From assembly GCA_964016885.1 (NCBI GenBank), contig OZ024742.1, positions 221,278,001 through 221,342,000 on the forward strand: a stretch of 64,000 bases of DNA. Reading direction: 5' to 3'. Below are positions 18,030 to 58,090 of the stretch, piece after piece (the stretch's first letter is position 1; every line of letters starts with the position of its first letter). Origin of the DNA: Eledone cirrhosa (lineage: Eukaryota). The notes beneath the pieces were generated by a model. The model did no database searches. It was not told the origin of the DNA and saw nothing but the letters and a program-made list of their open reading frames with translations. Position numbers and translations under genes: made by a program.

Positions 18030-19612
18030 TTGAGTAACGTTACTTGATAGAATGCATAGCTAGGAGATCAGAGAGTCACTCCAGGTAGAGCCGCTACTTC
18101 TCCGAATTGAGAGATCACAGCTCCAATACTATGGGAATGTGTTTAGAATGTCTCAGGAAAGAATCTCCGAATTGAGAGATCATAGCTCCAATACTATGGG
18201 CATGTGGTTAGAATGTCTCAGGAAAGAATCTCCGAATTGAGAGATCACAGCTCCAATACTATGGACATGTGGTTAGAATGTCTCAGGAAAGAATCTCCGA
18301 ATTGAGAGATCATAGCTCCAATACTATGGGCATGTGGTTAGAATGGCTCAGGAAAGAATCTCCGAATTGAGAGATCATAGCTCCAATACTATGGGCATGT
18401 GGTTAGAATGTCTCAGGAAAGAATCTCCGAATTGAGAGATCACAGCTCCAATACTATGGGCATGTGGTTAGAATGGCTCAGGAAAGAATCTCCGAATTGA
18501 GAGATCACAGCTCCAATACTATGGGCATGTGGTTAGAATGTCTCAGGAAAGAATCTCCGAATTGAGAGATCACAGCTCCAATACTATGGGCATGTGGTTA
18601 GAATGGCTCAGGAAAGAATCTCCGAATTGAGAGATCATAGCTCCAATACTATGGGCATGTGGTTAGAATGGCTCAGGAAAGAATCTCCGAATTGAGAGAT
18701 CATAGCTCCAATACTATGGGCATGTGGTTAGAATGGCTCAGGAAAGAATCTCTGAATTGGGAGATCCAGCTCTGATGCTATGGGCATGTGGTTAGAATGG
18801 CTCAGGAAAGAATCTCTGAATTGGGAGATCCAGCTCTGATACTATGGGCATGTGGTTAGAATGGCTCAGGAAAGAATCTCTGAATTGGGAGATCATAGCT
18901 CCAATACTATGGGCATGTGGTTAGAATGTCTCAGGAAAGAATCTCTGAATTGGGAGATCCAGCTCTGATACTATGGGCATGTGGTTAGAATGGCTCAGGA
19001 AAGAATCTCTGAATTGGGAGATCCAGCTCTGATACTATGGGCATGTGGTTAGAATGGCTCAGGAAAGAATCTCTGAATTGGGAGATCATAGCTCCAATAC
19101 TATGGGCATGTGGTTAGAATGTCTCAGGAAAGAATCTCTGAATTGGGAGATCCAGCTCTGATACTATGGGCATGTGGTTAGAATGGCTCAGGAAAGAATC
19201 TCTGAATTGGGAGATCCAGCTCTGATACTATGGGCATGTGGTTAGAATGGCTCAGGAAAGAATCTCTGAATTGGGAGATCATAGCTCCAATACTATGGGC
19301 ATGTGGTTAGAATGTCTCAGGAAAGAATCTCTGAATTGGGAGATCCAGCTCTGATACTATGGGCATGTGGTTAGAATGGCTCAGGAAAGAATCGCTGGAC
19401 AGATTTTATGGGCAAAACCAACCAGCAGGAGACCCAGGGGTAGACTCTAAGCAAGATGGTTGGATAATATCCATAAGCTTGGCTGGTCTCACTTGGGGAT
19501 CCAGCCGGATCAGTTGGAGACAGTTGCTTCTGACAGGACCCGCTGGAAGGAGTGTTTAAAGGCTCTGCTTCCATGACCCTCTCAGGAATAAGCGGGCGAA
19601 GAAGAAGAAAAA
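18030..19612 (+). mobile_element. RTE LINE 3' fragment interrupted by tandem amplification of its own coding sequence
   Basis: EIRESLQVEPLLLRIERSQLQYYGHVVRMSQERI..RRPRGR continues across the array; GAAGAAGAAG tail. Confidence 0.85.
18101..19392. repeat. 64-65-bp minisatellite, ~20 copies
   Basis: Unit TCCGAATTGAGAGATCACAGCTCCAATACTATGGGCATGTGGTTAGAATGTCTCAGGAAAGAATC. Confidence 0.97.
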
Positions 19613-20679: not shown

Positions 20680-21785
20680 TTCATAATCTACTGTAGTTCT
20701 GTAGTTGGGTGATTGATCCTAGCAATGGGGTCACAGTAGAAGTCAGCCACAGTTCTACATGACCTATATCTGCATTCATAATCTACTGCAGTCCTGTAGT
20801 TGGGTGATTAACCCTAGCAATGGGTAGAAGTCAGTCACAGTTCTACATGACCTATATCTGCATTCATAATCTACTGTAGTCCTGTAGTTGGGTGATTAAC
20901 CCTAGCAATGGGTAGAAGTCAGTCACAGTTCTACATGACCTATTGCTGCATTCATAATCTACTGTTGTCCTGTAGTTGGGTGATTAACCCTAGCAATGGG
21001 TAGAAGTCAGTCACAGTTCTACATGACCTATATCTGCATTCATAATCTACTGTTGTCCTGTAGTTGGGTGATTAACCCTAGCAATGGGTAAAAGTCAGTC
21101 ACAGTTCTACATGACCTATATCTGCATTCATAATCTACTGTTGTCCTGTAGTTGGGTGATTAACCCTAGCAATGGGTAGAAGTCAGTCACAGTTCTACAT
21201 GACCTATATCTGCATTCATAATCTACTGTAGTCCTGTAGTTGGGTGATTAACCCTAGCAATGGGTAGAAGTCAGTCACAGTTCTACATGACCTATTGCTG
21301 CATTCATAATCTACTGTAGTCCTGTAGTTGGGTGATTAACCCTAGCAATGGGTAGAAGTCAGTCACAGTTCTACATGACCTATTGCTGCATTCATAATCT
21401 ACTGTAGTCCTGTAGTTGGGTGATTAACCCTAGCAATGGGTAGAAGTCAGTCACAGTTCTACATGACCTATTGCTGCATTCATAATCTACTGTAGTCCTG
21501 TAGTTGGGTGATTAACCCTAGCAATGGGTAGAAGTCAGTCACAGTTCTACATGACCTATTGCTGCATTCATAATCTACTGTAGTCCTGTAGTTGGGTGAT
21601 TAACCCTAGCAATGGGTAGAAGTCAGTCACAGTTCTACATGACCTATTGCTGCATTCATAATCTACTGTAGTCCTGTAGTTGGGTGATTAACCCTAGCAA
21701 TGGGTAGAAGTCAGTCACAGTTCTACATGACCTATTGCTGCATTCATAATCTACTGTAGTCCTGTAGTTGGGTGATTAACCATAG
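20680..21785. repeat. 88-bp minisatellite, ~12.5 copies
   Basis: Unit CTACTGTAGTCCTGTAGTTGGGTGATTAACCCTAGCAATGGGTAGAAGTCAGTCACAGTTCTACATGACCTATATCTGCATTCATAAT. Confidence 0.97.
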
Positions 21786-22267
21786 GAATGGGGTAGGATT
21801 TGAATCCCTAGGAGGATTTTTAACTCAGAACACCGAGCGCTGCAACAGTTACTGCAAGACATCTTATCTGAAATTCTAGCTATTCTATCAACCTACTGTC
21901 AGGGACTGGTATGCTATTTTATTAACCCCAAATTGATGACAGGAAAAATTGACTGCAGAGATATTTGCACTTAGAGGGCAGAGAGGGAAGAAATACTGCA
22001 AAGCATTTAATCCAATGTCCTAACAAGTCTGCCATTCTACTATTAAGAACGTGGTATATGATTATATGGGCATGTACATAATTGCAGCTGGTGAGATCAA
22101 TCTATTAGATAAATGTTTTATCAATAAACATTTAAAAAAATTCTAAACAAATCTATTTCAAATAACAACACTACAGATATTTAAAAATGGAAAATGAAGG
22201 GAAGGGCAATGGCTCTAGGGTTACAGAAGAATGAGAGGGGGAAGAGGGAGGATGATGGGCTCTAGGC

Positions 22268-22500
22268 CTAGAGCGTGGCTGTGTTGGGGCTGCACCACAC
22301 AGACAAGACCACAAAAGCATTTCCACAGACAATGACCAGCAACACCCACTGCAACAGCCACCCTACCTTGTGTGGCTCCTTGCTCAATCGGGCTGCTGAT
22401 GTTTTGATCTTGCGGAAGAGCTCAGCTGTATAGGATCCTAGTATGCCTGAGGTCTCGACGGCGACCAGTGTGAAGAGGAAGTGGCCAGACAATCCCCGTA
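22268..22500 (-). mobile_element. Relic of a CRE-like RLE retrotransposon C-terminus
   Basis: FTLVAVETSGILG..LLQWVLLVIVCGNA resembles the F.P.AVET.G..G...LQR.S..IQRGNA motif. Confidence 0.55.
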
Positions 22501-22790
22501 TCAATTTATTGATGCTATCGATTGAGATGGTGAAAGCTGATCTCAAGAAACTGAGTTTCGTAAAGAAGTTGAATGACTAAGGAAAGAAATAAGTGAAAGG
22601 ATACAGTATTGGAGAAAACTTATTTAACTTATGCAATCATGTAAAGATGGATGTAGAAACATTAATGATGTTGATAACCTCTTGTGGGTTGAATCATGTA
22701 AAACAGTGGTCACCAACCTTTCTAAAACCGAGGAACTCTCTAAATATTTTGAATTCTTCACGGAATCTATAGACACCTTTATAAAACTTT

Positions 22791-23555
22791 TGTAGTCCTG
22801 TAGTTGGGTGATTAACCATAGCAATGGGTAGAAGTCAGTCACAGTTCTACATGACCTATATCTGCATTCATAATCTACTGTAGTCCTGTAGTTGGGTGAT
22901 TAACTCTAGCAATGGGTAGAAGTCAGTCACAGTTCTACATGACCTATTGCTGCATTCTTAATCTACTCTAGTCCTGTAGTTGGATGATTAACCCTAGCAA
23001 TGGGTAGAAGTCAGTCACAGTTCTACATGACCTATTGCTGCATTCTTAATCTACTGTAGTCCTGTAGTTGGGTGATTAACTCTAGCAATGGGTAGAAGTC
23101 AGTCACAGTTCTACATGACCTATATCTGCATTCATAATCTACTGTAGTCCTGTAGTTGGGTGATTAACCCTAGCAATGGGTAGAAGTCAGTCACAGTTCT
23201 ACATGACCTATTGCTGCATTCATAATCTACTGTAGTCCTGTAGTTGGGTGATTAACCCTAGCAATGGGTAGAAGTCAGTCACAGTTCTACATGACCTATT
23301 GCTGCATTCTTAATCTACTGTAGTCCTGTAGTTGGGTGATTAACTCTAGCAATGGGTAGAAGTCAGTCACAGTTCTACATGACCTATATCTGCATTCATA
23401 ATCTACTGTAGTCCTGTAGTTGGGTGATTAACCCTAGCAATGGGTAGAAGTCAGTCACAGTTCTACATGACCTATTGCTGCATTCATAATCTACTGTAGT
23501 CCTGTAGTTGGGTGATTAACCCTAGAAATGGGTAGAAGTCAATCACAGTTCTACA
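22791..23555. repeat. Second array of the same 88-bp minisatellite, ~8.7 copies, inside the hAT
   Basis: Same unit and orientation as 20680-21785. Confidence 0.97.
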
Positions 23556-38213: not shown

Positions 38214-38275
38214 TTGTAGTTAACACTGTTTTAGGAAAGCTAATACAATACAATTCTTTTCTTTTTTACTTGGCA

Positions 38276-39200
38276 TGTCTGGAGCAAGGGGCAGTGCCTA
38301 TGGCTTTCACAGGCTCTCAGGGACTGAATTGACTGATGTCTAGAGCAAGGGGCAGTGCCTATGGCTTTCACAGGCTCTCAGGGACTGAATTGACTGATGT
38401 CTAGAGGAAGAAGCAGTGCCTATGGCTTTCACAGGCTCTCAGGGACTGAATTGACTGATGTCTAGAGGAAGAGGCAGTGCCTATGGCTTTCACAGGCTCT
38501 CAGGGACTGAATTGACTGATGTCTAGAGGAAGAAGCAGTGCCTATGGCTTTCACAGGCTCTCAGGGACTGAATTGACTGATGTCTAGAGGAAGAAGCAGT
38601 GCCTATGGCTTTCACAGGCTCTCAGGGACTGAATTGACTGATGTCTAGAGGAAGAGGCAGTGCCTATGGCTTTCACAGGCTCTCAGGGACTGAATTGACT
38701 GATGTCTAGAGGAAGAGGCAGTGCCTATGGCTTTCACAGGCTCTCAGGGACTGAATTGACTGATGTCTAGAGGAAGAAGCAGTGCCTATGGCTTTCACAG
38801 GCTCTCAGGGACTGAATTGACTGATGTCTAGAGGAAGAAGCAGTGCCTATGGCTTTCACAGGCTCTCAGGGACTGAATTGACTGATGTCTAGAGGAAGAG
38901 GCAGTGCCTATGGCTTTCACAGGCTCTCAGGGACTGAATTGACTGATGTCTAGAGGAAGAAGCAGTGCCTATGGCTTTCACAGGCTCTCAGGGACTGAAT
39001 TGACTGATGTCTAGAGGAAGAGGCAGTGCCTATGGCTTTCACAGGCCCTTATAGACAGAAGTGACTGATGTCTAGAGGAAGGTGCAGTACCCATGGCTTT
39101 CAAGGGCCCTCATAGACAGAAGTGACTGATGTCTGGAGGAAAGAGCAGTGCCCATGGCTTTTACAAGCCCTCATAGACTGAAGTGACCAATGTTTGGAGG
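38276..39200. repeat. 61-bp minisatellite, ~13 homogeneous plus 2-3 diverged copies
   Basis: Unit GTCTAGAGGAAGAGGCAGTGCCTATGGCTTTCACAGGCTCTCAGGGACTGAATTGACTGAT. Confidence 0.96.
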
Positions 39201-39700
39201 AAGGAGCAGAGTCCATGGCTTCCATAGGCTTTCTGAGTTTGGAGAGATCAATGTTGTTGATGTTCTGTTTAAACTGTTTCAGGTCCACTCCTTTGGGAAA
39301 GAGGTCCAGAGAGTTGGTGTTCTGGGCAGGAAAGACTGGCTTGGGGGTGTTGGACATAACATGGCTAATGAAAGGAGGAGAGACAGGTGAATTGGGAATG
39401 TTTCAGTGAAAGTGGCTTGAATTAAGCCAGCTCTAAGTAGTAGAGACCAGTGGGAGGTAGGGGGAAACAGCATACTGTAGAGTGTTTTATGAGATAGATA
39501 TATCTCATTGTTGTATATAGATCAGAGACTATTGTAGTAGTCGTAGTGGAAGCAGAGGGAGTAGACATCATACCTGTAGTGTCTGGTGATATTGGTGAGG
39601 TAGATATATCTCCCGGTTGTATATAGGAACAGAGACTATTGTTGTAACAGTAGTGGGGTCATAGGGGGAGACAGCATACCTGTAGAGTGGTAATGGTAGA
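39200..39700 (-). mobile_element. Degenerate Jockey/CR1-group LINE C-terminus
   Basis: SLCFHYDYYN (internally duplicated), SFLPRTPTLW, FPKGVDLKQFKQNIN across frames. Confidence 0.6.
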
Positions 39701-42751: not shown

Positions 42752-43174
42752 GTGAGGGAGAGAGAGACATTTTATTGTATTTTACAAAGAACCAAGAAAG
42801 ATTATGTCCCTAAGCAAATCGTTTGATTGAACACAAACATCCAGAATTATATACCTGCTGGTACATGTCAAGTACGAATATGTATAAATCTTACTCACCT
42901 CATAAGTTTTAGTTATGGATTCAATTGTAAAAATTTCATGTGAATTAATTTTTATACATTTGTATTTTTGAGATACTCTTTTGTAAGTATATTTTTTGTT
43001 TTGCCTTGACTTTATCGTGGCTAATTAATGGTGAATTGGCAGAATTGTTAGAATATTAGATTAAATACCTCTTCGTGTTTCTTCCAGCTATCAGAGTGTT
43101 CTTGCTATAAAATGGATGAACATGTTATAAAAAACTCATGATACAAAACACAACATGCATCGATTATAACTATA

Positions 43175-43890
43175 AACTCATAATTAGAATATACTACAGA
43201 CTCATAGAATATACCAACTACGAATGCATAGTTAGAATATACCACATACTCATAGTTAGAATATACTACAAACTTATAGTTAGAATATACTACAGACTCA
43301 TAGTTAGAATATACTACAGACTTATAGTTAGAATATACTACAGACTCATAGTTAGAATATACTACAGACTCATAGTTAGAATATACTACAGACTTATAGT
43401 TAGAATATACTACAGATTCATAGTTAGAATATACTACAGACTCATAGTTAGAGTATACTACAGACTCATAGTTAGAATATACTACAGACTCATAGTTAGA
43501 ATATACTACAAACTCATTGTTAGAATATACTACAGACTCATAGTTAGAGTATACTACAGACTCATAGTTAGAATATACTACAGACTCATAGTTAGAGTAT
43601 ACTATAGACTCATAGTTAGAGTATACTACAGACTCATAGTTAGAATATACTACAAACTCATTGTTAGAATATACTACAGACTCATAGTTAGAATATACTA
43701 CAGACTCATAGTTAGAATATACTACAAACTCATTGTTAGAATATACTACAGACTCATAGTTAGAATATACTACAGACTTATAGTTAGAATATACTACAGA
43801 CTCATAGTTAGAGTATACTACAGACTCATAGTTAGAATATACTACAAACTCATTGTTAGAATATACTACAGACTCATAGTTAGAATATAC
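43175..43890. repeat. 24-bp minisatellite, ~30 copies
   Basis: Unit ATACTACAGACTCATAGTTAGAAT. Confidence 0.97.
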
Positions 43891-44158
43891 AACAAAAATA
43901 CCCACCTCCCTTCCAAAAAAAACAACAACAAAGAAAGAAACAAAAAACTTTTTCATCAACATGAAACCACAGAATGTACTGCACATAACCAATCATCATC
44001 ATCATCATCATCCCCACCATTTAATATCCATTTTCTATGCTAGCATGGGTTAAATGAGTTGTCCTGTTGTGAGACAAGCCAGGTTGGAAGACTGTGTCTT
44101 GCTCATACATAACTGTTTCTGGCATGGTTTCTATAGCTGGATGCCTTTCCTAATGCCA

Positions 44159-45909
44159 ACCACATATACAGTGTGGACTGGGTTCTTTTTGTCGTGACAG
44201 CTACACAACCACTTTACAGTGAGGACTGGGTTCTTTTTGTCCTGACAGCTACACAACCACTTTACAGTGTGGACTGGGTTCTTTTTGTAATGACAGCTAC
44301 ACAACCGCTTTACAGTGTGGACTGGGTTCTTTTTGTCATGACAGCTACACAACCACTTTACAGTGTGGACTGGGTTCTTTTTGTCGTGACAGCTACACAA
44401 CCACTTTACATTGTGGACTGGGTTCTTTTTGTCCTGACAGCTACACAACCACTTTACAGTGTGGACTGGGTTCTTTTTGTCGTGACAGCTACACAACCAC
44501 TTTACAGTGTGGACTGGGTTCTTTTTGTCGTGACAGCTACACAACCACTTTACAGTGTGGACTGGGTTCTTTTTGTCGTGACAGCTACACAACCACTTTA
44601 CAGTGTGGACTGGGTTCTTTTTGTCGTGACAGCTACACAACCACTTTACAGTGTGGACTGGGTTCTTTTTGTCGTGACAGCTACACAACCACTTTACAGT
44701 GTGGACTGGGTTCTTTTTGTCATGACAGCTACACAACCACTTTACAGTGTGGACTGGGTTCTTTTTGTCATGACAGCTATACAACCACTTTACAGTGTGG
44801 ACTGGGTTCTTTTTGTTGTGACAGCTACACAACCACTTTACAGTGTGGACTGGGTTCTTTTTGTCGTGACAGCTACACAACCACTTTACAGTGTGGACTG
44901 GGTTCTTTTTGTCGTGACAGCTACACAACCACTTTACAGTGTGGACTGGGTTCTTTCTGTCCTGACAGCTACACAACCACTTTACAGTGTGGACTGGGTT
45001 CTTTTTGTCGTGACAGCTACACAACCACTTTACAGTGTGGACTGGGTTCTTTTTGTCGTGACAGCTACACAACCACTTTACAGTGTGGACTGGGTTCTTT
45101 TTGTCATGACAGCTACACAACCACTTTACAGTGTGGACTGGGTTCTTTTTGTCGTGACAGCTATACAACCACTTTACAGTGTGGACTGGGTTCTTTTTGT
45201 CGTGACAGCTATACAACCACTTTACAGTGTGGACTGGGTTCTTTTTGTTGTGACAGCTACACAACCACTATACAGTGTGGACTGGGTTCTTTTTGTCGTG
45301 ACAGCTACACAACTACTTTACAGTGTGGACTGGGCGCTTTTTGTCGTGACAGCTACACAATCGCTTTACAGTGTGGACTGGGCGCTTTTTGTCGTGACAG
45401 CTACACAACCGCTTTACAGTGTGGACTGGGCTCTTTTTGTCGTGACAGCTACACAACCGCTTTACAGTGTGGACTGGGCGCTTTTTGTCGTGACAGCTAC
45501 ACAACCGCTTTACAGTGTGGACTGGGCGCTTTTTGTCGTGACAGCTACACAACCGCTTTACAGTGTGGACTGGGCGCTTTTTGTCGTGACAGCTACACAA
45601 CCGCTTTACAGTGTGGCCTGGGTGCTTTTTGTCGTGACACCTACATGACCACTTTACAGTGTGGACTGGGCACTTTTTGTCGTGATACCTACATGACCAC
45701 TTTACAGTGTGGACTGGGTTCTTTTTGTCGTGACAGCTACACAACCACTTTACAGTGTGGACTGGGTTCTTTTTGTCGTGACAGCTACACAACCACTTTA
45801 CAGTGTGGACTGGGTTCTTTTTGTCGTGACAGCTACACAACCACTTTACAGTGTGGACTGGGCACTTTTTGTCGTGACACCTACATGACCACTTTACAGT
45901 GTGGACTGG
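44159..45909. repeat. 48-bp minisatellite, ~36 copies, within an RTE-related 3' UTR (43992-46115, minus)
   Basis: Unit ACCACTTTACAGTGTGGACTGGGTTCTTTTTGTCGTGACAGCTACACA; flanks match the LINE 3' UTR. Confidence 0.97.
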
Positions 45910-46126
45910 GGATGTAGGTGGGGTAGGTGCATGGGGATTGGGAAGATAAATTTAGGGTAATTGGTAAGGAATAGGGGCGTTGGGGGTTGGGTGGAGTGTT
46001 AGGATGTGGGTGGGGTGTTAGAACACAGGAGGTGTATGGGAGGGGTGATGGAGGAGAAGGTGGCACATACTAGATGTATGCCTCAACTCCTGCACATGAG
46101 AAGGTGGGTCTTCTGTATATATATAT

Positions 46127-50884: not shown

Positions 50885-51341
50885 ATTGTTCTCCCCGCTC
50901 CACATATGACGTATTATCTTCGTTTTTTCCGTTCATTGCCAGAGAACGTCTCTATGAACCACCTAATAGAATATTAGTCTACGACTTCTTTTAATCCATA
51001 AACGTGGTTTTGTCTTTGCGCGTAATTGTTTTTCACCGCTCCAAATAATGACGTATTATATTCGTTTTTTCCCCGTTCTTTGCCAGGGAACGTTTCCACG
51101 AACCAAAGTATCCTCTTCCTGTCTTCCTCAGGTTGCAACGTTTTTTGAAATATTCACTTCTGCGTTCACAGATTGACTTTGTTAGTTTCAGAAGATCCCG
51201 TTAAGGGTGAAAGCAGCGATTCTTTGCTTAAACTTTAATCTGTTATTTTAATAAATATTTGCTCTACGGTTCTTATATATTTGATATATATTTATCTTTA
51301 TCGAGCCCTCTTTGGATTTTAGTCTTCAAATTTATTATTAT

Positions 51342-51406
<65 letters not shown>

Positions 51407-51711
51407 TGTAATAAACAACATAAGGCAATTATTTCATTTACCAGTGGTTTCTTGAAAGCAAACAAATTTTGCTTTCAATCATCAGAATGAAAAAATCCTG
51501 GTGTATTTATTCACATTGGATTTTAAAAACAAAAATATAATCTATATGAAAGTGAGGCTGGAAAAGGAAGAAGGAAAGGAAAAATAAACACACACACACA
51601 CAATTACATACACACATATATATATATACACAGATATATATATATAATTTAGGAATTTATAAATTTCCGGTTGGTTGGTTGGTTCCACAACCAGATGATT
51701 GTTCATATATT

Positions 51712-51754
51712 GTCAAAGTTCTTTTGTCGCACATTCTGTGACCTCTTCAGTGAC
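51712..51754 (-). ncRNA. Type I hammerhead motif in the inverted pLTR (GAAA mutated to AAAA)
   Basis: GTCA-CTGAAGA-GGTCACAGAATGTGCGAC-AAAA-GAACTT-TGAC. Confidence 0.6.
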
Positions 51755-51841
51755 TGGGGATTCTTTTCTTTGTTTTTGTGCCTCTCCTTTGTTCTGTCCT
51801 ACGCCATCTTGTTTTTGTGTGTGTTGTGTGCTTAGTTTGGA

Positions 51842-52464
51842 TTTACAAACACACCGAGCATTATAATAAATGTTCGGTGAATCCATACGTACATATATAT
51901 GTGTGCATGTATGTATAAATATATATATACATACTACTGTACGTCTATATACATATATATGTACGTATACATACTTATATTTAAGTAACAGCCGTACTAA
52001 GAGTGAGAAATGAAATTTCGTTTCATTTTTTACATTTATCGTTTTCGGTACCCCGACCGATTAACTCACTTGATATGCAAATTAGGCTGCTCAGCCGTTA
52101 ATATGCACAAGGAAAGTATATACTTTCAGACGTTCAACCATCTGGCAGGAAGGTATACGTTGCTGACGATAGCTAATAAGCTTGAAACTAGTACAGCGTT
52201 CCTTTGTCAGTGTTGAACAAATGAGGAACGATGGTTGCTAGACACTGTACGGCTTAATTCGGGATGTTTGTTTACAAACACACCGAGCATTATAATAAAT
52301 GTTCGGTGAATCCATACGTACATATATATATGTGTGCATGTATGTATATATATATATATACATACTACTGTACGTCTGTATACATATATGTATGTACGTA
52401 TACATACTTATATTTAAGTAACAGCCGTACTAAGAGTGAGAAATGAAATTTCGTTTCATTTTTT
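51842..52464 (+). repeat. Partial tandem (1.45x) of a ~430-bp structured unit containing a hammerhead; retrozyme- or pLTR-like
   Basis: 51842-52031 repeated at 52271-52464; hammerhead lies between the two copies. Confidence 0.8.
52157..52199 (+). ncRNA. Type I hammerhead ribozyme, intact core
   Basis: Stem I ACGTTG/CAGCGT, CTGACGA, stem II AGCT-AATA-AGCT, GAAA, palindromic CTAG stem III, GTA cleavage triplet (cut after 52193). Confidence 0.85.
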
Positions 52465-53390
52465 CCGTTTATATATATATATATATACCCCCACACCCTT
52501 CTCTCCCCGTTCCACCCACACCCTTTCTCACACACACACACATCCCACTAACACCTCTACTAATACACCCCACCCCCTCCTCACTCCAACTTTCACACCT
52601 ACCCATCCTCTCCCCTGTCCACCGCACCTCCGCACACACTGACACACCGACTTTCTTCACTTACCATTCTACCCGACTGCTGCTATGCCCTTATCTCTGA
52701 CCACCTCCCCGCACACATAGACACACAACCCTCCTCCTGTCTTGACCCTCTGACCACTTCCTGTTGCGCGCGCACCCCACATCTCCCCTCTTCCGACCAA
52801 TCTCTTCACGGATTACACATATTGAACATCGATCCCTAGAATCCACCACATCCCAAGGATATTACCCAGCATTCCACCACATCCTCTACGGAACTACCTT
52901 AAGGACTCACCCACTGACATACAGTAAAAAAAAATTTTTTCCCACATTCCACCTACATCCACAACACGCATAAACACCACATACACACGTGCGTACCACC
53001 ACATATTTACACACTCAGCCTCCGGAATCCTCTCCCCCATCCCTCCCCATCCACACACTCCGACCTACACCCCACCCCACACACACCTCTTCCTGAACAT
53101 GCAACCCCGTTCTTCCCCCAACTCTTACTTTCACATACACACACACACACGTACACCTACACACACACACCATCTTCAGCCCTCCCCGCCTCCCTCTCCT
53201 CACTCAACCCGCCACCACCCCTACACGCCCCACACCTTTCCACCACCTGTTTTACTTCATGTTTATTTTTATTTTTATTATGCTTTTATATTTAATTTCA
53301 TTTGTACCGTTTCCTCTCACCCCCTTTTTTCTATATGTCTCTCCACCACTCCCCTACACACCCTTGGAACTCTCTTCCCACACACTTTTC

Positions 53391-53422
53391 ACCTGAAGAA
53401 GGGCTTATGCCCGAAACGTCGT
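53391..53422 (+). ncRNA. Minimal Penelope-type hammerhead motif at the 3' end of a C-rich PLE-like fragment (~52480-53510)
   Basis: AC-CTGAAGA-AGGGCTTATGCCC-GAAA-CGTC-GT; stem I only about 2 bp. Confidence 0.7.
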
Positions 53423-53526
53423 TCCCCACCACTACCCCACTCTCAAGAGCGTGAAACTAATAAACCTTTGTTCGTATTGCCTCTGTTTTGTTCCCGTTCA
53501 ATTTTTTTTACTATATATATATATAT

Positions 53527-53657
53527 GGAGTGGTTAGAGCATTGGCCTTGCAATCGAAAGGTTGTTAGTTCAATTCTCAGACCAGGTGATGTGTTGTTTC
53601 CTTGAGCAAGACACTTTATTTCACATTGCTCCAGTTTACTCAGCTGTAGAAATGAGA
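53527..53657 (+). mobile_element. tRNA-SINE head
   Basis: Near-identical to 378-508. Confidence 0.85.
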
Positions 53658-54534
53658 TGAACCAAATGGGAAAAAATGGTAAATAATGATGCAAATGGGA
53701 CCTGCCCCTTGTATAGGAGCAAATTTTGGAATAGAATAGAAAGAACTAGGAATAAGGTTAATAGAATAAACTCATGGTATGATAGCAATAAATACCAGAG
53801 TGTAATGTTCATCAATACAACCCCTAGAGGTGAACTAGCTTACAAATTTAGAAGGGCCCTAGATAAACTTAAACTAAATATTAAGATAGTGGAAAGACCA
53901 GGTACCTACATAAAAACACTTATTAGAAATACATACCCTTTTCAAAGACCTCCCTGTATAGATAAGAAATGCATAATCTGAAAACTAAGCCCCCATATTA
54001 ACTGCAAAACTAGAAACATAGTATATAGCATAAGGTGTACTGAGGGACAATGTAAAGATAAGAATATAATGTACATAGGTGAGACAGCTCGTAGTATAGG
54101 AGAACGATTAAATGAACACTGGCGAGAGCTTCAAGATAGAAAAGACTCATCAGTACTCCACCAGCATACTAAAATAGAACATAAGGGCAAATTAGAGAAC
54201 ATAGAAATAAAAATAAAATCTACACACAGAAAAGATGCAATGGTTAGACAAATCACAGCGGCAATAAACATAAATGAACTCCAACCAAAATTAAATAGAA
54301 AACATGAATGGAATAGCAACATCACAATTTTCAATTAAGGACAAAATGAAAACACACATACATAGAACAAACAACCAACTAGTAACATGTAAATAAACAA
54401 ATAAATAAACAAATAAAAACACACACAGACACCCGGATGTAACACATGCGCAAACTAAGCACACAATACACACAAAAACAAGATGGCGGAGGACAGAACA
54501 AAGGAGAGGCACAAAACAAAGAAAAGAATCCCCG

Positions 54535-54577
54535 GTCACTCATGAGGTCACAGAATGTGCGACGAAAGAAATTTGAC
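54535..54577 (+). ncRNA. Type I hammerhead motif in the 3' pLTR (CTGA mutated to CTCA)
   Basis: GTCA-CTCATGA-GGTCACAGAATGTGCGAC-GAAA-GAAATT-TGAC. Confidence 0.6.
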
Positions 54578-54730
54578 AATATATGAACAACCGTCCGGTT
54601 GTGGAACCAACCAACCAACCGGAAATTTATAAATTTTTTAAATTTATAATTAAATTTATAATAAATTGGAGTGAAAGCAACTGGTGCATGTGTTTCTTAT
54701 TGGCAACATGACCCTCTCAAAGTATAACAA

Positions 54731-55389
54731 TCTATATATATAAAGCTGTGGTTGTCTGTCTGTCTATCGATTTTTGGCACACATCTCCTCTTAGAATCTC
54801 TGACGGAATTGCACCGAAATTGCTATACTTGTACATTGAGCCCTAGCGAAGACATCGGAAAAAAAATATTTCAAATTGACCCACCCTATGTGACGAAATC
54901 GAATCTAATGTATCGATTTTTGAGCGTAAGTGACGAGTTATTTCCCTTTGTTCTGTTTACATTGAGCGTCTACGTTCTGTTTACATTTTCTGCGTGCAAA
55001 AATTAAAAAAATTACGCTGGCTTTCTCAGCGTTTAAAATGACATTAACACAATACACGAACAGTTGTCGAGCCAGCAAAATGTTGACCTGCAAAATTCAT
55101 CAGTTCGAACACTAAGCTTCCGTTTTGCTTCATTTCCATTTAAAAGCCTTTTAAAACAATATTTTTACTTGAAAACAAGTCTATTTAAAGACTACGTAAA
55201 ACAAGCAAATATTTCGTAAAAAAAAGCAAAAATTATATAAGTTTATTTAAAATATATGTATCTGTAAATTTCGTTAGGCGTGCAGACAGACAGTCGTGCA
55301 GACAGATTTTAAGCCAAAAAAGAAACTTAACATTGTAACTTTAACACAGCTACTGGGCGACCCCGAGCAACGCCGGGCTTTACTGCTAG
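54731..55389 (+). mobile_element. Non-autonomous Helitron
   Basis: A|TCTATATATATAAAG start; subterminal hairpin CCCGAGCAACGCCGGG; CTAG|T end. Confidence 0.9.
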
Positions 55390-55439
55390 TATATATATAT
55401 ATTTAAAAAGAAGACGATTTAGAGTCGTATGACATAACT

Positions 55440-57229: not shown

Positions 57230-58090
57230 AAAATATACAGTGAGTGATCAGCCTGATTTGCATATTAGCAGACTGGCTGATCAGTCAGATCTACATATTT
57301 TCAGATCCACTGATCAGCCAGATTTACATATCAGCAGACTGGCCAGTCAGTTTCCTGTATAAGAGCGATAAATGGCTGGCTTTGCCACGTTAAAAAAAAA
57401 AAAAAAAAAAAAAAAAGTTCGCTCTACATGTCTGAATACAATAAATGTAATCTGAGTTTTTATTATTAATATTAATATTCGAAAAACTCAGATTACATTA
57501 GATTAAAAATTAGGTATTGGGATTGGTGCTCTGAAATAGCGATGTATACATGAACGTATGTATAGTATATTTGGCAATATACCGTATGTTTAATTTAAAA
57601 CATTTAGAAGACCATACGCTATCAGTTTTAAAGTAGTGACTATTACTTACTTCTTTTCAATGAAAGAAGGGAGAGAAGTTGACAGTCTGTTTCATGCTGG
57701 TTGGCGTTCATCAGAGCCACGTACTCGCCTGCTTTCGCCAAAAATTTTAGAAACTGGATTCTTATACAGTTCCAGTAATAATCAGGAGCTGATTATACAG
57801 AGCGATTGCCGGTCCAGCAAAAATTAGATATTAGGATTGGTGCTCTGTATAGTATATTTGGCAATATACTGTATGTTTAATTAAAAACATTTAGAAGACC
57901 ATTCACTATCAGTTTTAAAGTACTGACTATGTCACTTTTTTTCGGCGAAAGAAGGGGGAGAGGCTGACAGTCTGTTTCACGCTAGTTGGCGTTCAATACC
58001 TAATTTTTGCTGGACCGGCAATCGCTCTGTGTAATCAGCTCCTGATTATTACTGGAATTCTATAAGAATCCAGTTTCTATAATTCTCGGT
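57230..58090. repeat. Complex rearranged segment: 33-bp tandem (x3.5), poly(A), hairpin, direct repeat and inverted repeat
   Basis: Direct repeat 57520-57710 / 57834-57995; inverted repeat 57740-57826 / 58000-58085; hairpin TGTAATCTGAGTTTTT/AAAAACTCAGATTACA. Confidence 0.75.

Follow-up and report, generated by a model that had tools for sequence, protein, structure and literature searches.

The window analysed here is a 64,000-nt stretch of the Eledone cirrhosa genome, which holds on its forward strand an insertion of a short tandem repeat at 51842-52472, assigned by sequence, self-alignment and family mapping to a retrozyme family denoted RZ1. The insertion is truncated at its 5′ end and comprises 1.47 copies of a 429-bp unit by self-alignment, in agreement with the 1.45 copies of a ~430-bp unit in the original prediction. 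The full unit (51842-52270, +) has no frame of at least 100 aa on its sense strand, and 69% of it is paired in a predicted circular fold. It is followed by a partial second unit (52271-52472, +), corresponding to unit positions 1-198, which is ~96% identical to the first in a self-alignment over 202 bp, with 6 differences. The tandem structure had thus been recognised correctly; the end had been placed at 52464, a few bases short of the true one at 52470-52472, where the element terminates at a site denoted S2 in a (TA)n target run (52471-52487). End mapping defines a 'tail' (52409-52472, +) between a site S1 at ~52409 (51976 in the first copy) and S2 at ~52470 (52037 in the first copy). At its other end the insertion meets an inverted 3′ piece of a Penelope-like element (PLE), PLE_A (51634-51839, −), which sequence comparison shows to be joined 5′-to-5′ with the retrozyme via a 5-nt microhomology. 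The unit also carries an octamer-like element, ATGCAAAT, at 52075-52082 (+), which is present in 20 of 22 aligned monomers of RZ1 and its sister family RZ2 and is a candidate promoter element or protein-binding site. Newt satellite 2 has an octamer-type promoter.

A type I hammerhead with an extended stem I lies at 52142-52210 (+; core 52163-52193), as seen from sequence, pair counts and fold, and includes the interval 52157-52199 where it had been predicted. Its elements are stem I (52157-52162 with 52194-52199), CUGACGA (52163-52169), GAAA (52184-52187), CUAG and the GUA site (52191-52193), with cleavage predicted after 52193. Stem I is longer than first noted, since it continues across internal loops through pairing of 52150-52153 with 52201-52204 and of 52142-52147 with 52205-52210, to a total of ~16 pairs. 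Stem II (52171-52174 with 52179-52182) comprises four pairs, with a U-U mismatch below them; positions 10.1-11.1 show this mismatch in 125 of 126 copies. Stem III is a single pair capped by the palindromic CUAG, and two such stem III stretches are predicted to form a six-pair duplex through their ACUAGU palindrome (−6.8 kcal/mol), a dimer arrangement known for metazoan type I hammerheads (PMC4209133). The window copy has only one hammerhead and therefore cannot release a monomer, as the original prediction had cautioned; no circles would be produced from it.

The ribozyme unites two weak features, the U-U at the base of stem II and the one-pair stem III, which were found separately in two axolotl families (PMC7229834). 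Newt satellite 2 and axolotl HHR_Amex1 are alike in having a one-pair stem III with a palindromic tetraloop, for which cutting as a dimer is expected, and differ in sequence and lineage (PMC7229834; PMC6155905). Among the frog dimers reported in a recent preprint, only one of nine was cleaved in vitro (bioRxiv 10.64898/2026.07.22.740005).

Folding of the circular monomer, proposed earlier as a check, predicts a stable structure of −138.6 kcal/mol. Relative to 100 dinucleotide shuffles this gives z = −8.4, or z = −5.4 when the TA-rich hairpin is left out. Predicted circular folds of 31 monomers have 61-70% of their bases paired. In the window circle the ribozyme is predicted to be largely free, with the active fold ~1.4 kcal/mol above the minimum, and some monomers favour a competing fold, with a stem I probability of 0.07 or less in nine of the 31. 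A switch in which the ribozyme is blocked was considered and rejected, as stem I persists in the window circle (probability 0.72) and the blocker is not conserved in RZ2. All five of the complementary blocks listed in the original prediction are present; three are fully paired in the minimum-energy circle and two, CGTTCCT/AGGAACG and CAACCATC/GATGGTTG, are not. Pairing of CGTTCCT with AGGAACG needs G52226, and nearly all copies in sequencing run X1 have C there.

The putative hammerhead went undetected in Rfam both at the gathering threshold and at E≤10, and its identification rests on the motif and on covariation. Sub-threshold Rfam matches to microRNAs were traced to the TA-rich hairpin and set aside. 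In 22 cut-to-cut RZ1 and RZ2 monomers, 17 of 61 named pairs are changed on both sides and 96.8% of paired cells can pair, versus 29-45% for slid partners, although relatedness inflates the shuffle test and most of the changes reflect the single split between RZ1 and RZ2. The stem I pair 52160/52196 is UG, AU or GU in 110 of 117 RZ1 copies. Outside the ribozyme, a hairpin at 51852-51879 (+) is kept through compensatory changes across the subfamilies and RZ2 (five of nine pairs changed on both sides), as is a long-range helix within 51990-52254 (+), which pairs 51990-51997 with 52247-52254 (three of seven). Invariance of the core in our alignment A2 was discounted, because its rows were chosen by the core motif and the argument is circular. 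Contigs from four sequencing runs were also used, and low-depth matches in two further organisms, B and C, were not counted towards the range. The contigs of run X1 were not chosen by core motif, and in them variants reach 10% at just one core position, the free N7.

The family is abundant in the genome. The exact 31-nt core occurs 10,046 times in the 3.0-Gb assembly and the reversed control not once, so this abundance is not due to chance. The best 40 full-length matches to the unit are 96-98% identical to it, and identity falls to ~80% in older RZ1 subfamilies. For a closer view we took all 80 loci holding the first 100 exact cores on contig C1, a sample which, like the others here, was chosen by core patterns and is biased towards intact ribozymes. 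Loci with two or more units had been suggested as a test of the prediction, and they exist: at 12 of the 80 loci one arm has at least two hammerheads and could, by prediction, release a monomer. The longest RZ1 array has 24 cores, and 21 of its 22 monomers are distinct. Two sister families of ~468 bp, RZ2 and RZ3, were found using patterns that exclude RZ1, and can be aligned with RZ1 along the whole unit. RZ2 has 4,304 cores at no more than one mismatch and RZ3 has 5,278. In both (L128; L272; L281-L284) a canonical G-C pair closes stem II and the cut triplets are GUC or GUU. RZ3, the younger of the two sisters, includes arrays that are very young and occupy both arms; it offers the best experimental material.

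A short non-coding tandem unit dispersed over many loci, with one type I hammerhead each and no LTR/PBS/PPT layout, classifies the repeat on its sequence-level features as a non-LTR retrozyme. Such retrozymes are a known kind, already described from a mussel (PMC7229834), and we did not find this family described for the lineage. Our literature searches returned no cephalopod retrozyme, although the supplements of PMC7229834 and of the bioRxiv preprint may list such species, and 235 hammerhead-1 loci have been reported in a squid genome (PMC6962438). The non-LTR retrozymes of coral, mussel and axolotl are likewise low-GC, non-coding tandems of a few hundred bases in thousands of copies, with one type I hammerhead per unit and a stable self-paired circle in which the ribozyme is predicted to be largely free (PMC7229834). 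The present units, at 429-470 nt, are longer than the ~170-400 nt invertebrate circles described there, and the frog preprint gives 51-972 bp (bioRxiv 10.64898/2026.07.22.740005). For the coral, mussel and axolotl elements expression and circles have been demonstrated, whereas the present family is known from genomic sequence; two-site ends, inverted arms and a (TA)n target are not described in the sections of PMC7229834 compared here.

It is the anatomy of the insertions that links the family to PLEs. Over the 80 loci, 106 of the 128 arms not at a locus edge have their 3′ ends at two sites ~60 nt apart: 57 at S2 (unit position ~198), 49 at S1 (~133-135) and 22 elsewhere. The 5′ ends are scattered over the whole unit. 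Downstream of the end there is a TA run in 45 of 65 S2 and 36 of 59 S1 cases (81 of 124 in total). Sequence is present on both strands, as an inverted arm, at 38 of the 80 loci. Of 38 divergent arm pairs, 25 terminate at S1 or S2 on both arms, whereas in the other 13 one end lies elsewhere. All 25 classifiable pairs combine one S1 end with one S2 end, and neither S1+S1 nor S2+S2 was seen (binomial p = 6e-8 against one half). The same combination is found at 17 of 18 two-strand RZ2 loci, the remaining one having three ends, and at all 12 RZ3 loci. Insertions of an autonomous element, PLE_C, show the same pattern of one end per site. PLE insertions are recognised by partial tandems, by an inverted 5′ copy and by a tail on only one side (PMC8557442); that tail spans the stretch between two internal reverse-transcription start sites (PMC11167929). 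As the two-site ends, inverted arms and one-sided tail of the retrozyme match these marks, we infer that it enters the genome by the PLE route, with reverse transcription presumably starting at S1 and S2. The use of a PLE enzyme, suggested in the original prediction, thereby gains backing from insertion anatomy, beyond co-occurrence, the enzyme itself being a deduction from that anatomy. The preprint on frog retrozymes, in the part available, ties retrozymes to PLEs through co-occurrence and similarity to PLE pseudo-LTRs (pLTRs), with no mollusc sampled (bioRxiv 10.64898/2026.07.22.740005). No account of retrozyme insertions with a tail or inverted-arm signature was found in the literature searched, although supplements may list such structures.

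The likeness to GIY-YIG PLEs, including PAc, extends to partial tandems, 5′ truncation, an inverted 5′ arm, a tail at one end, two internal start sites, an AT-rich or (TA)n target and a hammerhead (PMC8557442; PMC11167929). The retrozyme differs from them in having no coding frame and a tail of ~60 nt rather than 30-40, and its hammerhead, with a long stem I, belongs to the canonical metazoan kind, whereas that of the PLEs is of the minimal pLTR kind. Non-autonomous Chlamys PLEs such as MRC1 are also non-coding, multicopy in head-to-tail order, mobilised by PLEs and targeted to microsatellites (PMC8557442). MRC1-type elements are similar at their 3′ end to an autonomous partner and are not described in that source as ribozyme circles, whereas the retrozyme unit shares no sequence with PLE_A, PLE_C or a third PLE family, the three to which the comparison was limited. 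What these three families have in common with the retrozyme is the target and the end pattern.

The window itself is a pile-up of TA-targeting elements. The 3′ end of PLE_C lies at 50890-51345 (+). This is a young family, with copies 96-98% identical (L259-L261), a (TA)n target, an 87-nt tail, a hammerhead-like motif (CAGAAGA versus CUGANGA) and many intact 713-aa frames with a reverse transcriptase (RT), a linker CxC/CxxC zinc-finger motif and a GIY-YIG-like end. The 713-aa protein had no match in Pfam. PLE_C is a candidate helper. A C-rich element at 52490-53512 (+) has a minimal hammerhead-like motif at 53393-53420 and ends in (TA)n. Its 3′ part is 98-99% identical in 40 scored copies of 2,329 candidates and no frame was seen in 1 kb; it is possibly the 3′ region of another young PLE. 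A 5′-truncated PLE_A at 53661-54730 (+), one of 34,351 genome candidates, has a pseudo-LTR, a hammerhead-like motif, a tail and a frame with a GIY-YIG domain at 53982-54335 (Pfam E 6e-5). The repeat at 54730-55390, which may be Helitron-like to judge by its end motif, begins within the TA run behind PLE_A and is found again beside PLE_A ends at other loci. A tRNA-like SINE head lies at 366-437 (Rfam tRNA, 31.9 bits), with a truncated copy at 53527-53655 beside the retrozyme. Minisatellite arrays unrelated to the retrozyme occupy 18099-19397, 20736-23555, 38275-39230 and 43169-45910 (periods 65, 88, 61, 24 and 48), and two diverged direct copies ~287 bp apart, with minus-strand hammerhead-like motifs near 57714, lie at 57505-57995.

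The retrozyme had been described as nested in a PLE, and this now appears doubtful. The inverted Penelope piece to the left of the retrozyme differs by 8% and by two linked subfamily letters from the copy to its right, and the two are probably separate insertions. The left PLE_A piece ends without a tail in (TA)n and the retrozyme ends with one, so that the rule of one tail per insertion is obeyed. For both reasons a chimeric insertion, of which the PLE_A piece is possibly the second arm, seems likelier than nesting in one PLE. Joins of this 5′-to-5′ kind between the retrozyme and inverted PLE fragments occur at three loci outside the window (L117, 2278-2281; L124, 668-674; L059, 2106-2108), and are possible insertions of two RNAs. 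They involve three different PLE families in all, one in the window and at L117, another at L124 and another at L059, and the joins were therefore rejected as a pointer to a single helper. Most other matches to PLE frames at the sampled loci were dismissed as TA-run artefacts.

The sequences within insertions bear on the nature of the template. Units from one locus, including those on opposite arms, are closer to each other than the between-locus median at 37 of 39 RZ1 loci and at all 25 RZ2 loci. One RZ3 locus (C1:30.83 Mb) has 13 and 7 hammerheads on its two arms, one S1 end and one S2 end, and its 18 full monomers are all identical across both arms. At a second RZ3 locus all 20 monomers are within one difference. 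The commonest monomers of 13 RZ3 loci are all distinct, being separated by 2-33 changes that are roughly additive among the closest six. Polishing is still a possible cause of such identity; differences inside other arrays survive in the assembly, however, so identity within an array is not automatic. Leaving out the multi-insertion loci L057, L210 and L214 and the RZ2 loci L175 and L180, fixed variants private to one locus number six, in five of 35 RZ1 loci, and 23 in 23 RZ2 loci. The strongest evidence for one template comes from the sister families and not from RZ1, because RZ1 arrays are older and heterogeneous and their private fixed variants are rare. Periodic variant patterns indicate later DNA-level duplication in long arrays. 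Exactly at the cut site there are 32 5′ ends, versus 31 at a control position, and this lack of an excess means that cut linear monomers were not a favoured template. A selected ribozyme, arms that cross the cut site repeatedly and one sequence per insertion would most simply be accounted for by a circle that is cut, ligated and copied by rolling, the model put forward in earlier work (PMC7229834; PMC4209133).

The window holds a truncated copy of a non-LTR retrozyme whose insertions bear the Penelope signature, and we consider it likely that the family spreads as a small RNA circle copied by a PLE enzyme. Arrays with at least two hammerheads would be transcribed, neighbouring hammerheads would pair via the ACUAGU palindrome so that a monomer is cut out, and a host ligase would close it into a circle, the latter two steps being suggested by the work on coral, mussel and axolotl. 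The RT/GIY-YIG protein of a PLE would nick both strands of a (TA)n run, and copying would begin at two internal sites ~60 nt apart, one per strand, consistent with the end pattern observed. Both arms would roll round the same circle, over distances from less than one unit to more than ten, in keeping with the same-template pattern, and would be joined 5′ to 5′. The narrower proposal, in which the insertions record how a Penelope enzyme primed on both target strands, used two sites of a single circle made by the ribozyme and rolled round it up to twenty times, may equally well prove right or wrong.

An unlikely reading, though one that deserves real weight, is that the repeat is a non-autonomous PLE derivative made from uncut linear read-through RNA, with arrays that grow by unequal crossing-over and a hammerhead that acts at a different step or only with protein. 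For one PLE assayed in vitro the main substrate was uncut RNA, and hammerhead mutants still inserted (PMC11167929); the flat 5′-end count at the cut site and the DNA-level expansion that periodic variants betray in long arrays fit such a template too. It would, however, need long uncut multimers, or separate expansion of both arms that left no difference in the array with 18 identical monomers despite locus-specific fixed changes, and it leaves a covarying stem I that joins the monomer ends without a reason.

It is far less probable that the unit serves as the pseudo-LTR of an autonomous PLE with a coding part outside our sample, most copies being 5′-truncated remnants. In its favour, the behaviour of the ends is exactly that of PLE ends, frog retrozymes are similar to pLTRs (bioRxiv 10.64898/2026.07.22.740005) and our query frames came from three PLE families only. 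Yet no sequence at the junction is common to the 50 free 5′ flanks save the hairpin of the unit itself and one duplicated locus, the 5′ ends fall all over the unit, and arrays reach 24 units without a frame, with the previous unit sitting upstream of each unit. The original prediction held that homologues always attached to an RT/GIY-YIG frame would mark an ordinary pLTR. Among the 80 loci, frames of the three PLE families match at 15, where they are adjacent elements within a shared TA run; a same-strand join at the 5′ end of the unit was found in none. An inert satellite spread at the DNA level, with the hammerhead as a relic, would explain tandem arrays with higher-order duplication and is scarcely credible otherwise: the copies are dispersed, their 3′ ends are fixed and their 5′ ends variable, and they have inverted arms and a (TA)n target, all of which are hallmarks of target-primed reverse transcription; the stems also covary. 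The end and arm patterns largely refute it.

As a ribozyme family alone, this retrozyme is ordinary. The case for the enzyme that mobilises animal retrozymes, and for the circle as its template, has so far been built on co-occurrence and sequence resemblance. In the present family the Penelope signature is seen in nearly every classifiable insertion, and the young sister families repeat one monomer sequence over both arms. The insertion record makes the mechanism of a circle plus Penelope directly testable and bears on the unresolved Penelope transposition cycle, and as a substrate for tests of rolling-circle target-primed reverse transcription the family has the advantages of a small unit, high copy number, recent activity and mapped start sites. 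If the reading of one circle per insertion is true, it would name the enzyme class and the template of animal retrozymes, and, with a 430-nt model substrate, would explain the partial tandems, inverted arms and one-sided tails of Penelope elements. The rare insertions that combine a retrozyme arm with a PLE arm would then be two-RNA events pointing to the helpers.
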